Shown one piece after another: positions 6,347 to 24,352 of a stretch of DNA of 32,000 bases. The stretch is from Chlamydiota bacterium (GTDB taxonomy: Bacteria; Auribacterota; JACPWU01). The position numbers were made by a program, and so were the translations under genes. How positions within the stretch are numbered: the stretch's first letter is position 1; each line of letters begins with the position of its first letter. Location of the stretch: the NCBI GenBank assembly GCA_016196885.1, contig JACPWU010000011.1, positions 90,001 through 122,000 of the forward strand, in the 5' to 3' direction. A model generated the notes under the pieces. It was not told the origin of the DNA and searched no databases. It saw nothing but the letters and a program-made list of their open reading frames with translations.

Positions 6347-6399
6347 TTTTGTAGTCGCTCGATTCATCGGGCAGCCCCATAAATGGGGCGACTACAAAA
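6347..6399 (-). repeat. double-hairpin intergenic repeat, copy A (inverted orientation)
   Basis: ttttgtagtcgctcgattcatcgggcagccccataaatggggcgactacaaaa is the reverse complement (1-2 mismatches) of the elements at 17057-17103 and 20843-20901. Confidence 0.85.
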
Positions 6400-19408: not shown

Positions 19409-20731
19409 ATGAGAATCCATCGCCATTTTCTACACTCAGAGCTTTTAAAGCATTTCCAAAACCCTAAAGAAGTCATTGTCTTAGAAGGGGTTAGACAAAC
19501 GGGTAAAACAACACTCATCAAACAGTCTTTAGAAGGGAAACCCTCCCTCATCGTCACTCTGACAGATGAAACCGTTCCTGTCATTCGCTTGAGGGAAGCT
19601 GCGACCTTTGAAGATTTTTCGGAAATTCTTGCCCGTGATTTTCATTTTCATCCTCGTGACGCAAAACCGCTTGTCATTGATGAAGCCCAAAAATCTCTCC
19701 ACTTGCATAAGTTCATTCTCAAAATGCATTCTGACTGGAAGGAAACACCCCTTGTCTTGTCAGGTTCAGCCATGGGTGTTTTCTTTAAAAGAAGTGAAAT
19801 CCAAAAAACGGTTTCACCTGCCGGAAGGGTTCGACGTTTTGTCTGTCGAGTCTTTTCTTTTGCGGAATATCTGGAACTGAAAGGAGAGGAAACACTGCTC
19901 TCGCAGATCCGTCATTTCAATCTGGGTCAAACCTTACATCCAACTCTACATGAGCGCCTCATGAATCTCTTTTATGATTATCTCTCATCGGGGGGATTTC
20001 CAGAGGCGATTAAGTTTGGAACAACGGAAAAAATTTATGATTATCTGGAAACACTTCTCTCTTTTTTCTGGCAAGATGCAGACCGATACCTTAGTGAACT
20101 CATGGGTTCTAACAAAAGACAATACGGAATGTTGTTTAGAACCATTCTAGAAAGTGTTGCACGTCTAACCTGTTTTAACTCTACACGGGCGAGTCTCATC
20201 TCGACAGATTCTCCAGCGTACCGCACAGACTTGCCTGTTCTGTTGGATGCCGCAGAGGAATGGCATTTTCTGTTTCGACTTCCGACATACATGGAGTCTT
20301 TGACCCCTCAAAGGCACAGCTCCAAAAAATATTTATGGGATGTCGGCGTCGTAAACCACTTTCTAAACGTGGGACGCCCTATTTCAGGTTCATCGTCGCC
20401 GGAGCTCCTCGCCAAACTTCTGGAGTCCTTTACAGCCCAAGAACTTATTTTTGCCTTGAGACACAAAGAGAGACTCTTTTCTTGGAAGAGTCAGGTTAAG
20501 CAGCCCAAAGAAATGGATTTCCTCGCCCGCTTTCCTGAAAAAGATGTAGGTATCGAAGTCAAATCATCTTCCTCTATCAGTCAAAAGGCCATTTCCCAAT
20601 TGAGGGAATTTAAAAAGAGAAATCCAAAAGCCCCTTGTTTTGTGATTTATCTGGGCCCTGTGATGCAAATCGAAAACATCTGGTTCATTCCTCCTTATTT
20701 GCTGGGTGAACTGGCAAGATGGGTAAAGTAA
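19409..20731 (+). CDS. AAA-family ATPase with C-terminal DUF4143-like region
   Basis: Walker A GVRQTGKTTL and Walker B LVIDEAQ; 440 aa, the typical size of the ATPase/DUF4143 family. Confidence 0.75.
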   Translation: MRIHRHFLHSELLKHFQNPKEVIVLEGVRQTGKTTLIKQSLEGKPSLIVTLTDETVPVIRLREAATFEDFSEILARDFHFHPRDAKPLVIDEAQKSLHLHKFILKMHSDWKETPLVLSGSAMGVFFKRSEIQKTVSPAGRVRRFVCRVFSFAEYLELKGEETLLSQIRHFNLGQTLHPTLHERLMNLFYDYLSSGGFPEAIKFGTTEKIYDYLETLLSFFWQDADRYLSELMGSNKRQYGMLFRTILESVARLTCFNSTRASLISTDSPAYRTDLPVLLDAAEEWHFLFRLPTYMESLTPQRHSSKKYLWDVGVVNHFLNVGRPISGSSSPELLAKLLESFTAQELIFALRHKERLFSWKSQVKQPKEMDFLARFPEKDVGIEVKSSSSISQKAISQLREFKKRNPKAPCFVIYLGPVMQIENIWFIPPYLLGELARWVK

Positions 20732-20842
20732 AAATAAATCAAAAATAAAATATCAAAATGACAAACCAAAATCCAAAATGTATCTATGTCATGGATTATG
20801 AAACCATTTTAAATTTTGATTTTTGCTATGAGAGGCTCATTT

Positions 20843-20901
20843 TGTAGTCGCCCCATTTATGGGGCTACCCATGGATTTGCCCGATGAATCGGGCGACTAC
20901 A
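20843..20901 (+). repeat. double-hairpin intergenic repeat, copy C (with 12-nt internal insertion)
   Basis: Same as copy B but with acccatggattt inserted before the second hairpin. The insertion looks like a degenerate duplication of gcccgatgaatc. It ends 15 nt before the tldD ATG. Confidence 0.85.
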
Positions 20902-20915
20902 AAAGCTAAAAATTT

Positions 20916-22400
20916 ATGCAAATGAAAGAACATAAATATCATTTCACCTCCGAATCCCTCGCCCAAGAAGCGCTAGGTGAGGCTGTTAGCTTAGGAGCCA
21001 CTTATGCAGATGTGCGCCTGATCGAATCTGGCTCGAGAGCGCTCGCGACTAAAAACGGGGTTCCAACCAGTCTTGATTTTGAAGAGTCTCAAGGTTTAGG
21101 CATCCGTCTTCTTTGTCAAGGGGCTTGGGGCTTCGCGGCCACACACGACCTTTCCAAAGAAAATGTGATTCGGACTGCTTTCAAGGCTATTAAAATCGCG
21201 AGAGCCAGTGCCCTTGCCCAAAAAACCCCCGTCAAACTTGCACAAGAATCGCCGATTCAAACCGAATGGTCGACACCCTATTTAATAGATCCCTTCTCCA
21301 TATCGATTGATGAGCAATTGAATTTCCTTTTTCAAATAGACGAGGCAGCTCGAAAAATCAAAGGGATTAGCATCGTTGAGACCCAAATGCATTTTGAAAA
21401 AGAGAAAAAACTTTTTCTTTCCAGTGAGGGGTCTAGAATCCTCCAAAATTTTATCACTTCAGGAGCCGGCTTTAATGTTCTCGCTTTTAAAGGGGGAGAT
21501 TTACAAAAGCGGTCTTATCCCAACTCTTTTGGCGGACAATACCAAAGAAAAGGTTATGAACTTATTCATGAACTAAAGCTTCTAGAAAATGTCCCACGCA
21601 TGGCTGAAGAAGCCGTTCAACTTCTTTCAGCCCCCAGCTGTCCTCAAGGAGAAAAGGATCTGATTCTAGATAGCTCTCAGTTGGGCCTTCAAATTCATGA
21701 ATCGGTGGGCCATCCGATCGAATTGGACCGCGTTTTAGGAAGCGAAGCCAATTATGCAGGCAAAAGTTTTTTGACCTTAGACCAGTTGCACCATCTTCAA
21801 TATGGATCTCCCCTTGTCCATGTCGTTGCAGATGCAACAGCTTCTCATGGACCGGGACTCGGAACTTTTGGATTTGACGATGAAGGCGTCCCTGCCCAGA
21901 GAACTGATATTATTCGAGAGGGACATTTTGTCGGCTACCTCTCTTCTCGCGAAACAGCCCCTGCCATTCATGAGAATCGTAGCAATGGAACCATGCGGGC
22001 CGAAAGTTGGAATCGCATCCCGTTGATTCGCATGACCAATGTCAGCCTTCTACCTCAAGCCGGCACGTTTGAAGAATTAATCTTAAGTACGCGAGACGGA
22101 ATTTATTTAGAAACCAACCGTAGTTGGAGCATTGATGATCGAAGGCTTAATTTTCAATTTGGAACCGAAATCGGCTGGGAGATTAAAAATGGTAAAAAAG
22201 GCCGCATGGTTAAAAATCCGATTTATTGGGGGATGACCCCTGAATTCTGGAACGCCTGTGACTGGATTTGTGACGCGAATCATTGGACGCTGTGGGGCAC
22301 TCCCAATTGCGGCAAAGGCCAGCCCTGTCAAACGATGGGGACAGGGCATGGCGCGAGCCCCGCTAGGTTTCTTGCGGTAAACGTTGGGGCCAGCCATTGA
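20916..22400 (+). CDS. tldD: TldD-family metalloprotease
   Basis: HESVGHPIELD (HExxxH) and C-terminal GTPNCGKGQP-type blocks; 494 aa. Confidence 0.85.
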   Translation: MQMKEHKYHFTSESLAQEALGEAVSLGATYADVRLIESGSRALATKNGVPTSLDFEESQGLGIRLLCQGAWGFAATHDLSKENVIRTAFKAIKIARASALAQKTPVKLAQESPIQTEWSTPYLIDPFSISIDEQLNFLFQIDEAARKIKGISIVETQMHFEKEKKLFLSSEGSRILQNFITSGAGFNVLAFKGGDLQKRSYPNSFGGQYQRKGYELIHELKLLENVPRMAEEAVQLLSAPSCPQGEKDLILDSSQLGLQIHESVGHPIELDRVLGSEANYAGKSFLTLDQLHHLQYGSPLVHVVADATASHGPGLGTFGFDDEGVPAQRTDIIREGHFVGYLSSRETAPAIHENRSNGTMRAESWNRIPLIRMTNVSLLPQAGTFEELILSTRDGIYLETNRSWSIDDRRLNFQFGTEIGWEIKNGKKGRMVKNPIYWGMTPEFWNACDWICDANHWTLWGTPNCGKGQPCQTMGTGHGASPARFLAVNVGASH

Positions 22401-22412
22401 TAGCAAGATCTA

Positions 22413-22445
22413 ACGCAGATCTGTTACGCGGATCGAACGCAGATC
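22413..22445. repeat. left array of three 9-mers ACGC(A/G)GATC
   Basis: acgcagatc 22413-22421, acgcggatc 22426-22434, acgcagatc 22437-22445. Spacing is 13 and 11 nt. Confidence 0.8.
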
Positions 22446-22455
22446 TGGAGCGAGT

Positions 22456-22857
22456 ATGGCGTTACTATACCGAGATATCACGTATGAGATCAGAGGGGCA
22501 TGTTTCTGGATATGGAAAGAATTTGGAAACGCTTTCAAAGAATCTATTGTTGACAAAGCCCTCACGGAAGAACTCAGAAAAAGAGGGCTTAAAGTTACCG
22601 ATCAAAAGCGCATTGACGTTTTTTATAACAACAAAAAGGTTGGAACTTATGTCCCGGATAAAATCGTCAATGATTGCGTCCTTGTTGAGATCAAGAGGAA
22701 ACCCTTTTTGCTTAAGCAAGATAAAGAACAGTTTTGGCATTATCTCAAAGGTTCTAGTTATAAACTAGGAATGTTAATCAACTTCGGAGAAAGGGGATTG
22801 GAAATCAAGCGAGTCATCTACGACATCAAGAGAGGGATCCGCATCAGATCCGCGTAG
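22456..22857 (+). CDS. GxxExxY-family protein (PD-(D/E)XK nuclease-like fold)
   Basis: ITYEIRGACFWIWKEFGNAFKESIVDKALTEELRKRGLKV...VFYNNKKVGTYVPDKIVNDCVLVEIK follows the family pattern. The GxxExxY motif itself is degenerate (AFKESIV). Confidence 0.7.
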   Translation: MALLYRDITYEIRGACFWIWKEFGNAFKESIVDKALTEELRKRGLKVTDQKRIDVFYNNKKVGTYVPDKIVNDCVLVEIKRKPFLLKQDKEQFWHYLKGSSYKLGMLINFGERGLEIKRVIYDIKRGIRIRSA

Positions 22858-22879
22858 AGGATCCGCGTTTGATCCACGT
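22836..22879. repeat. right array of four 9-mers GATCC(G/A)C(G/A)T, the inverse of the left array
   Basis: gatccgcat 22836, gatccgcgt 22847, gatccgcgt 22860, gatccacgt 22871. Spacing is 11, 13 and 11 nt. The array overlaps the last 8 codons and the stop of the GxxExxY gene. Confidence 0.8.
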
Positions 22880-22883
22880 CAAC

Positions 22884-24224
22884 ATGAAAATACTTAGAGA
22901 AAAATCAGAACATATTTTCGAGACTATCCTCAAAGCCAGTCAGGCGGATGAGACCGAGATACACTTTTCTCAAACCGCGTACTCCCTCACCCGTTTTGCA
23001 AACAATGAAATTCACCAAAATATGGGAGATGAAGACGTAGAAATTTCTATTCGTTCTTGTTTCGGTAAAAAAACCGCTCGCGTCACCACCAACAAAACGG
23101 ATCCAGAATCTCTCAAAAAAATGACTCAACTGTCCAATCATCTGGCTTCTTTGAATCACGAAGATCCACATCTTCTGCCCATGCCAAAGCCTCAAAAATA
23201 TGAGGGGGTTCATCACGCCTATGAAAAGACAGATCACATGAAAGCCGAGACAAGAGCCCACGCCGTTAAAGTTCCGATTCAAATTGCTCAAAGTAAAAAT
23301 TTACAATCAGCCGGAATTTTCTCAAACAGCTTTACTCGGTTTGCCATCGGAAATTCAAAAGGCCTGAGGGCCTATTCAGAAGAAACGTATGCCGTTTTTT
23401 CAACCACCATGATGTCCAATTCCTCAGGATCTGGCTGGGCAAAATTTGGTCATTCAGATGCAAGCAAAATTCCCGTTGAGACACTGGCCCTCGAAGCCTC
23501 TGAAAAAGCGGTGTTGAGCAAAAATCCTATCGAACTACCTGCAGGGACTTACACCGTTATTTTAGAACCCTCTGCTGTTCTTGACCTTTTGGAATTTATG
23601 CTCATGGATTTTGGAGGGCTTTCGGTTTTAGAACAAAGAAGCGCCTTCACCGAAAAAAGAGGACAAAAAATATTTGGGTCCAACATCACCCTTCATGATA
23701 ACGTCTATCATCCCCTTCAATCAGGGGCTCCTTTTGATGGCGAGGGAATTCCAAAACAGAAAATAACATTGGTTGAAAAAGGAATCTTAAAAAATTTAGT
23801 TTACAGCCAATCGAGTGCCCATCGGGCAAACGCAAAACCGACGGGCCACGGCTTTGCCATTCCAAATGATGGGGGTGAAGCCCCTCTTAATATTGTCATG
23901 GAAGGAGGTAATACCTCTTTAAAACAAATGATTGAAAATACAAATCAGGGTTTACTCATCACCCGATTCTGGTATATTCGTGAGGTGGACCCCATGCAAA
24001 AGATTTTGACGGGGATGACGCGGGACGGGACTTTCTTGATCGAAGACGGAAAAATGAGAGATGCGGTGAAAAACTTTAGATTCAATGAAAGCCTCTTTCA
24101 TCTCTTCAACAATGTCGAAGAATTGGGAGAGCCTGTGAGAGCCTCGGGAGAAGAAGGAATCGACAGGGTCGTTCCCGCTTTGAAAGCCAAGGATTTTCAT
24201 TTTACAAGCAGTACTAAATACTAA
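22884..24224 (+). CDS. pmbA: PmbA/TldE-family protease subunit
   Basis: TldD/PmbA fold blocks (RFANNEIHQN, GLLITRFWY, DGTFLIEDGK) without HExxxH. ATG at 22884 (tracked TTG at 22869 lies inside the repeat array). Confidence 0.8.
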   Translation: MKILREKSEHIFETILKASQADETEIHFSQTAYSLTRFANNEIHQNMGDEDVEISIRSCFGKKTARVTTNKTDPESLKKMTQLSNHLASLNHEDPHLLPMPKPQKYEGVHHAYEKTDHMKAETRAHAVKVPIQIAQSKNLQSAGIFSNSFTRFAIGNSKGLRAYSEETYAVFSTTMMSNSSGSGWAKFGHSDASKIPVETLALEASEKAVLSKNPIELPAGTYTVILEPSAVLDLLEFMLMDFGGLSVLEQRSAFTEKRGQKIFGSNITLHDNVYHPLQSGAPFDGEGIPKQKITLVEKGILKNLVYSQSSAHRANAKPTGHGFAIPNDGGEAPLNIVMEGGNTSLKQMIENTNQGLLITRFWYIREVDPMQKILTGMTRDGTFLIEDGKMRDAVKNFRFNESLFHLFNNVEELGEPVRASGEEGIDRVVPALKAKDFHFTSSTKY

Positions 24225-24243
24225 ATTCGGAATACGAAACTCG

Positions 24244-24352
24244 AAGCACGAAACAAATTTAAAATTCAAATATTTAAACATTCGAAACGTTTATAATTTT
24301 GAATTTGAGTTTTAGAATTTGTTTCGAATTTCGACATTCGAATTTCGTGCTT
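24244..24352. repeat. AT-rich long imperfect palindrome built of CGAAA/TTTCG words
   Basis: aagcacgaaa (24244-24253) pairs with tttcgtgctt (24343-24352). Inner pairs are acaaatt/aatttgt and aaattcaaa/tttgaattt. TTCGAA occurs three times. Confidence 0.6.

Follow-up and report, generated by a model that had tools for sequence, protein, structure and literature searches.

A GxxExxY-family nuclease gene between inverted motif arrays at the tldD–pmbA junction of a Chlamydiota bacterium, a candidate compact selfish cassette

Introduction

The ORF-bearing intervening sequences (IVSs) of 23S rRNA genes are among the described systems closest to the locus reported here. The IVS of Coxiella burnetii (428 nt, S23p; PMC4990558) resembles the proposed selfish cassette described below: it is a selfish insert that measures about 0.45 kb and contains a single small ORF and inverted flanks; it is likewise passive inside the host transcript, acquired horizontally and then inherited vertically. 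It sits, however, in an rRNA helix, whereas the cassette sits at an mRNA operon junction or, in relatives, in frame within protein genes. The ORF of the IVS encodes a PF05635 four-helix bundle, and that of the cassette a PD-(D/E)XK nuclease; the flanks of the former are a continuous RNase III stem, while those of the latter are arrays of a conserved motif with non-complementary spacers.

Rickettsia palindromic elements (RPEs) and intragenic MITEs (PMC10969869) are likewise palindromic, lie in frame in housekeeping genes and are translated as an extra peptide. The RPE-like members of the present family are doublets of arms without the ORF (L014 3763–3850, L005, P0249 and P0405), the copy in our window having the ORF itself. 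RPEs encode no enzyme and have no known autonomous partner, whereas in the full-length cassette the same arms enclose a conserved nuclease gene.

Homing endonuclease genes and inteins also place a nuclease gene at fixed sites in conserved loops of essential proteins (for the cassette, LepA, RecG, GatB, RtcB and LeuRS), with presence/absence polymorphism and long purifying selection. Unlike them, the cassette has no intron and no Hint or splicing domain and is apparently retained in the mature protein; its terminal inverted arrays, moreover, have no counterpart in homing endonuclease genes.

Mu, Tn7 and CACTA/En-Spm elements have multiple oriented protein-binding repeats at either end, which the arrays of the cassette resemble. 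TnsA of Tn7 is itself a PD-(D/E)XK nuclease and is a precedent for such a nuclease cutting transposon ends. In contrast to these transposons, the whole cassette measures about 450–520 bp and encodes one 125-aa protein; a DDE, HUH, serine or tyrosine enzyme is lacking, and a target-site duplication is not clearly seen. The REPIN–RAYT systems likewise combine one small nuclease- or transposase-like gene with inverted short repeats, dispersed doublets, vertical inheritance and purifying selection. RAYTs are HUH/Y1 enzymes acting on REP hairpins and REPINs are extragenic, whereas the enzyme of the cassette is of the PD-(D/E)XK type and its copies occur in frame inside genes.

A PD-(D/E)XK gene, inverted arrays of a motif and an in-frame location within essential genes are found together in none of these closest analogues, and full-text literature searches returned no description of this architecture. 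In the literature searched, GxxExxY and PF13366 proteins are mentioned only in passing, with no function assigned.

Results and Discussion

Organization of the cassette locus

The cassette lies in a stretch of 32,000 nucleotides from a Chlamydiota bacterium, called here the window, and its features are presented in Table 1. As the original prediction stated, the insert exactly fills the interval between the tldD stop and the pmbA ATG, and its coordinates were reproduced. Three 9-mers had been described in the left flank; all three are present, but a degenerate fourth unit at 22402 had been overlooked. The four reverse-complement 9-mers of the right flank were all found at their predicted positions, and translation agrees that the right array encodes the C-terminal residues RGIRIRSA and the stop, with units 1 and 2 overlapping the final codons and the stop of the ORF. 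The spacers between units are of 2, 4 and 2 nt, mirrored, in left and right arm alike, and the two arms together make a 39-nt inverted repeat that is 77% complementary according to the repeat finder.

Table 1. Coordinates of the cassette, its units and the adjoining host genes in the window
Feature	Position	Strand	Remarks
tldD	20916–22400	+	ORF and Pfam PmbA_TldD domains; TGA stop (22398–22400) adjoins the insert; host gene upstream
Left arm	22401–22455	+	terminal TAG and degenerate unit (TAGCAAGATC, 22401–22410), then ACGCRGATC units at 22413, 22426 and 22437
Left unit 4, degenerate, AGCAAGATC	22402–22410		overlooked in the original prediction
Left unit ACGCAGATC	22413–22421		
Left unit ACGCGGATC	22426–22434		
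Left unit ACGCAGATC, second copy	22437–22445		
GxxExxY / PDDEXK_3 gene, 133 aa	22456–22857	+	TAG stop at 22855–22857
Right arm	22836–22883	+	four reverse-complement units GATCC(G/A)C(G/A)T at 22836, 22847, 22860 and 22871
Right unit GATCCGCAT	22836–22844		
Right unit GATCCGCGT	22847–22855		
Right unit GATCCGCGT, second copy	22860–22868		
Right unit GATCCACGT	22871–22879		
pmbA	22884–24224	+	ATG at 22884; host gene downstream

The cassette ORF is co-oriented with the tldD–pmbA operon and is preceded by a ribosome-binding-like GGAG (22447–22450), located 5 nt 5′ of its ATG, and 4 nt separate the last unit of the right arm from the pmbA ATG. No promoter-like or terminator-like site was found within the cassette (22401–22883). 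The left end, where TGA is directly followed by TAGCAAGATC, resembles the terminal motif of the family, TAGAAGCnGA. No target-site duplication is visible at the junctions of the insert. The cassette is present in the 32-kb window as this one copy, and an Rfam scan of the whole window matched no family and no rRNA.

The repeats might be coincidental GATC-rich sequence, or might just code for a repetitive peptide tail, since the right array is partly translated. The exact matches to ACGCRGATC in the 32-kb window, five in number, are all inside the two arms, on the plus strand in the left arm and on the minus strand in the right one. Clusters of three matches within 45 nt occurred in 0 of 300 Markov-simulated windows. 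Moreover, the two arms are reverse complements of each other and do not encode the same peptide, and the same motif stands beside homologues in dozens of unrelated genomes, in all reading frames. These simulations, the arrays found across the family and the retention of the 9-mer in a sister genome (both described below) rule out coincidental GATC-rich sequence, and we regard this whole explanation as having a negligible chance of being correct.

The encoded nuclease

The 133-codon gene was originally assigned to the GxxExxY family with a PD-(D/E)XK-like fold, and profile matches above the cut-offs bear this out: the protein matches PF13366 (PDDEXK_3; E 4.7e-29, 101.6 bits, cut-off 22) and TIGR04256 (GxxExxY; 101.1 bits, cut-off 35). 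Residues E29, D68, E78 and K80, which form the PD-(D/E)XK constellation, are invariant in 31 sequences, and the 31 homologues share 60–80% identity across phyla. The literal G..E..Y motif is A..E..V in this subfamily. An AF2 model of the protein (pLDDT 88) gave Foldseek matches to Cas4 SSO0001, the alkaline exonuclease LHK-Exo, the Holliday-junction resolvase Hjc and MGME1. From its conserved residues and modelled fold, the cassette protein is predicted to be a minimal PD-(D/E)XK nuclease with intact catalytic residues. It is encoded by the sole ORF of the cassette, which has no transposase of the DDE, DEDD, HUH, Ser or Tyr classes; to our knowledge, a 125-aa PD-(D/E)XK protein does not belong to any known transposase class.

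A sequence search of solved structures found no relative of the protein, the PADLOC and PHROGs libraries of defence and phage families gave no match to it, and phage records held no homologue. Plasmid records contained only five distant homologues, on megaplasmids. A scan of viral contigs for three phased units returned more than 120 matches, with one weak homologue and essentially no paired arms; these matches are therefore attributed to chance or to coding repeats.

Insertion at the tldD–pmbA junction

Junctions of tldD and pmbA without the cassette, which the original prediction proposed to look for, exist in syntenic relatives. The distance from the tldD stop to the pmbA ATG is 5 nt in L058, 0 nt in L059 and 29 nt in L060/61. 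All of these have the gene order GDE–tldD–pmbA–VitK2, as in the window, and their PmbA proteins are 72–75% identical to that of the window. Since syntenic relatives lack the cassette, positions 22401–22883 (483 bases) are a discrete insert, and the cassette is a presence/absence polymorphism at the tldD–pmbA junction.

The sister genome L056 (PmbA identity 78%) shares the insertion site, where its cassette has five left and six right units of the same 9-mer. Between the window and L056 the cassette ORF presents a pN of 0.107 and a pS of 0.81, and pmbA a pN of 0.134 and a pS of 0.78. Diverged flanks at the same site in relatives, named beforehand as the sign of coincidental repeats, were not found, L056 retaining the 9-mer at a pS of 0.81. 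Because synonymous sites are saturated while the protein and the 9-mers are kept, the insert is old at this site: the copy at the tldD–pmbA junction is ancient, vertically inherited and not recently mobile. As judged from these substitution patterns, the cassette ORF and the motif are both shown to be under purifying selection.

The neighbouring slot between GDE and tldD (window 19409–20731) is also variable: it contains an AAA_14/DUF4143 ATPase gene in the window, a PF05635 gene in L056 (3078–3440) and a VanZ-like gene in L060, and is empty in L059. The window also contains two oppositely oriented copies of a REP-like palindrome about 55 nt long (TTTTGTAGTCGC...GCGACTACAAAA), one at 6347–6399 and the other, in the interval from the AAA_14/DUF4143 gene to tldD, at 20840–20904. 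An ORF-less pair of inverted 7–8-mer arrays (ACGAAAC ... TTTCGAA) is located at window 24228–24347, where it separates pmbA from the VitK2_biosynth gene. A similar unit (TTCGAAAT / ATTTCGAA) flanks the gene of a PF05635 '23S rRNA IVS protein' inserted before tldD in L056 (3040–3475). The ACGAAAC-type arrays are possibly a second cassette family of the same design. Inverted arrays as a general rule around PF05635 genes were considered and rejected; they hold in L056 and not clearly in L064.

Array design across the family

Loci with homologues of the cassette protein were collected from genomes (21) and metagenomes (32), 53 in total. About 35–40 of the 53, from several phyla and mostly from Patescibacteria (CPR), present the same inverted arrays beside genes of the same GxxExxY subfamily, a recurrence that the original prediction had put forward for examination; among loci with a protein identity of about 47% or more, almost every one has this design. 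The hosts are mostly CPR (Saccharibacteria, Doudna-, Portnoy- and Staskawiczbacteria), and further hosts are MAGs labelled Bdellovibrionales, Gammaproteobacteria and Pseudomonadales.

The design consists of 3–8 units per arm, ACGCNGA on the left and TCNGCGT on the right, in strict orientation and with a phasing of 10–13 nt; the unit spacing alternates 10/12, 11/12 or 11/13, one arm being in this respect the mirror image of the other. The unit takes the form (A)CGCN(G/A)A on the left and its reverse complement on the right. An A precedes CGC (position −1) in 72% of 179 units, although the search pattern did not demand it. The part of the unit after CGC is lineage-specific and changes on both arms together (GGA/TGA/AGA, CAA, AAG, AAA, GAA). 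Many intergenic copies terminate in TAGAAGCnGA ... TCnGCTTCTA; in these, the left TAG is at or just past the upstream stop, and the right CTA is a few bases 5′ of the next ATG. The TA at both ends of several CPR copies could belong to the inverted repeat or be a target-site duplication. Whole elements measure 450–564 bp, most of them less than 525 bp, and the upstream gene of intergenic copies is on the same strand in 21 of 21 loci.

ACGCNGA arrays are absent from distant homologues (37–40% identity; Scalindua, Chitinophagaceae). In the Scalindua loci L021 and L022 (37–38% identity), the GxxExxY gene stands instead between direct copies of an approximately 30-nt repeat (CTCTTGGTTTCCTGGCTTCCTTATAAGAAA).

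Cassette proteins of Chlamydiota and Patescibacteria are 65–80% identical, whereas the next-closest PmbA homologues outside the clade of the window reach about 52–55%, including a Patescibacteria protein at 52%; this difference indicates horizontal spread of the cassette. One identical cassette protein, P0043, is present on more than 24 contigs, always in one local gene block with a prepilin gene and a PF05635 gene, and is thus uninformative on recent transposition.

DNA sites or an RNA helix

Inverted arms around an ORF may also be read as an RNA-level element similar to the 23S rRNA IVSs. The arms would pair into a long imperfect stem around the ORF, and RNase III or the encoded nuclease would cut it, freeing the ORF RNA and parting the tldD and pmbA messages. 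The minimum-free-energy fold of 22395–22890 does pair the two arms with each other (z −3.3), and the fold of an ORF-less doublet reaches −44 kcal/mol (z −5.7). Cassette and host transcription are co-oriented in 100% of cases, the size and layout are like those of the ORF-bearing Coxiella IVS excised by RNase III (PMC4990558), and the PF05635 'IVS protein' gene of the sister genome is also found between inverted arrays.

The left arm was compared in register with the reverse complement of the right arm in 14–20 loci. Units match between arms at 89%, versus 83% between different loci, and spacers match between arms at 38%, versus 30% in the cross-locus control. The central N matches in 23 of 46 arm pairs, and transition mismatches have no strand bias, with 25 G.U-compatible in the sense and 21 in the antisense strand. 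Since the units are conserved and the spacers are not complementary, arrays of protein-binding sites are favoured over a continuous RNA stem, and the comparison favours reading the arrays as phased, sequence-specific double-stranded-DNA sites rather than as an RNase III-type stem. A maintained RNA stem receives no support from spacer complementarity, central-N covariation or G.U strand bias in these loci, though the arms pair in the fold. The terminal motif, too, is kept as sequence and not via covariation. In addition, the intragenic copies described in the next section are always open, in frame and under strong purifying selection, which argues for translation through the insert and not for cleavage; cleavage would destroy essential mRNAs. 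An element acting at the RNA level is, for these reasons, quite unlikely.

In-frame copies and ORF-less derivatives

In several loci, the cassette lacks a start or stop codon and lies in frame inside a host gene. The cassettes of L014, L015/L043, L017, L018 and L048 are embedded in lepA, between ITIKMAPVRMxY and YxLNLIDTPGH; those of L016 and L047 are embedded in recG, between DEQHRFGV and MTATPIPRT; and those of L025 and L030 read into prepilin genes. The lepA-embedded copies have a pN of 0.11–0.26 at a pS of 0.72–0.92, a constraint equal to that of the LepA G domain. Genes for LepA without the cassette, that is, empty sites, were also found. An apparent splitting of lepA by insertions, suggested by many short LepA matches, was discarded: of the two cases inspected, one was a frameshifted assembly and the other a gap of 16 nt.

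An exhaustive profile-free search of 1.84 billion representative proteins returned 816 matches at E<=1e-10. Among the best 150 of these 816, a large share are long proteins in which the domain is internal or terminal. A recognisable host protein was identified in 27 of the 30 long representatives scanned: GT4 glycosyltransferases, RecG, LepA, GatB, asparagine synthase (AsnB), RtcB, LeuRS, Wzy-type ligases and prepilins. In most of the 27 fusions the nuclease domain stands between parts of the host protein; it is N-terminal in the prepilin fusion and in a truncated LeuRS record. Array-encoded linkers are present on both sides of the domain in all seven fusion proteins inspected, and likewise in the lepA and recG copies. 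An intein was considered and rejected: Pfam found only PF13366 and host domains, with no Hint domain, and the junction peptides are variable translations of the arrays, lacking the Cys/Ser ... His-Asn-Cys/Ser/Thr nucleophiles.

Doublets of a left and a right arm without the ORF, of about 90 nt, also occur. One of them (L014 3763–3850) is in frame at a second site of the same lepA gene, another precedes a prepilin (L005 958–1042), and peptides derived from doublets are found in P0249, P0405 and P0412. Some of the 6-kb loci examined thus have an ORF-less copy in addition to the full cassette. Solitary arms occur as well.

Three further observations concern the same host genes. The prepilin leader-cleavage motif G|F(T/S)LIE is repeatedly the exact end point of full cassettes, doublets and solitary right arms (L005 958–1060; L025, L027 2409–2460, L030; L064–L073). 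The CPR LepA proteins P0241 and P0249 have other in-frame repeat insertions ('PITNYQLPI' / 'LTNYQLPITNYQN') in LepA loops that contain ACGCNGA doublets in other genomes, and the loops in question appear to be hot spots for in-frame elements of several kinds. The LeuRS fragment P0398 has, besides the GxxExxY domain, a NUDIX domain between its editing and catalytic parts, another apparent domain insertion in a CPR housekeeping protein.

Junction hairpins of intragenic copies

The intragenic copies do not have TAGAAGC termini. At their junctions, a short reverse complement of the adjoining host codons makes a hairpin of 8–16 bp beside the outermost unit, as in L014 (2955–3412), L015, L017, L018, L048, L016, L047 and L194. 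The left junction in lepA reads GTGAGAATGG-tgta-CCATTCTCAC and the right one GGTTGAGTAT directly joined to ATACTCAACC; the left junction in recG reads CTCAGCGC-aaa-GCGCTGAG, and that in gatB GAGGTTAAT.TTTCTG ... CAGAAA.ATTAACCTC. Junction windows fold to −11 to −17 kcal/mol, versus about −5 kcal/mol in control windows; the value of −25 kcal/mol at the gatB left junction is that of a 75-nt stretch, whose length differs from that of the controls. Orthologous copies present compensatory changes (GTGAGAATG/CATTCTCAC, GTCAGAATG/CATTCTGAC, GTGAGGATG/CATCCTCAC), and in two empty lepA genes a local inverted repeat of this kind is absent. The junction hairpins could be a by-product of insertion, a substrate of a structure-specific nuclease or a device acting at the RNA level.

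A compact selfish cassette or a domesticated gene

The explanation that we favour, with a probability of roughly 0.55, is that 22401–22883 is one copy of a compact selfish cassette, in which a single gene for a 125–133-aa PD-(D/E)XK nuclease lies between inverted arrays of a 7–9-nt motif (ACGCNGA; here ACGCRGATC). The arrays would be phased double-stranded-DNA binding sites for oligomers of the encoded nuclease, and the two ends, each with 3–8 sites at intervals of about 11 bp, would be synapsed in the manner of the terminal sites of Mu or Tn7. The nuclease might then cut at or near the termini (TAGAAGC...GCTTCTA in many copies), leading to excision, copying or homing into new sites. The element would persist by being harmless to its host: it would ride on host transcription with its own stop-like terminus and ribosome-binding site, and upon in-frame landing in a surface loop its arms would serve as stop-free linkers.

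We infer mobility from the presence and absence of the cassette at the same site, its identical design in unrelated hosts and genes, the high identity across phyla and the ORF-less derivatives. The proposal that the cassette is, or was, a self-contained mobile unit gains support from the recurring arrays, the empty sites and the retained 9-mers; the protein that would bind the arrays is most plausibly the encoded nuclease.

A purely selfish immobile copy should decay, yet the window and lepA copies are kept to synonymous saturation, so that either a host benefit or recurrent homing is required. The former would agree with a domesticated, host-beneficial gene, a nuclease serving for example in repair, defence or recombination at pilin loci, with the arrays as operator or recombination sites of a cassette that no longer moves. 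Purifying selection through long vertical descent, as strong as on pmbA and LepA, the maintenance of the arrays at synonymous saturation and the recurrent association with prepilin genes are all in line with such a role, and the layout parallels that of vertically inherited RAYT genes between REP sequences. However, the protein is unmatched by defence-system models and phage families, and its hosts comprise at least nine unrelated proteins besides operon junctions, with no common functional logic. The near-identical design with 65–80% identity across phyla indicates horizontal spread, and the absence in close relatives is patchy. Domestication is for us a serious though rather unlikely rival, and we retain the selfish cassette as the main reading.

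Broader reading and significance

On a wider and more tentative reading, which we consider possible though doubtful, the cassettes would represent an unrecognised class of autonomous mobile element, whose sole enzyme is a minimal PD-(D/E)XK nuclease and whose ends are arrays of its binding sites. Such a class would have a third route into essential genes beside introns and inteins, namely as a tolerated in-frame domain insertion. The junction hairpins, as inverted copies of host sequence kept by compensatory changes, would in that case be a trace of, or a functional component in, a new chemistry of insertion or excision, such as structure-specific cutting by an Hjc-like fold. There is a substantial chance that the cassettes are a distinct class with a mechanism of their own.

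GxxExxY/PF13366 is a large and widely annotated family, which now has a concrete and testable context: its gene is here the cargo of a cassette of about 0.45 kb with defined ends, which spreads across phyla and is found at operon junctions and in frame in at least nine housekeeping protein families. The defined sites, that is, the ACGCNGA arrays, the TAGAAGC termini and the junction hairpins, make biochemical tests straightforward. If the nuclease acts on the arrays, the cassette would be among the smallest autonomous elements known, would supply in-frame palindromic elements of the RPE type with the autonomous partner that they lack, and would give rise to domain insertions and annotation artefacts in CPR genomes.
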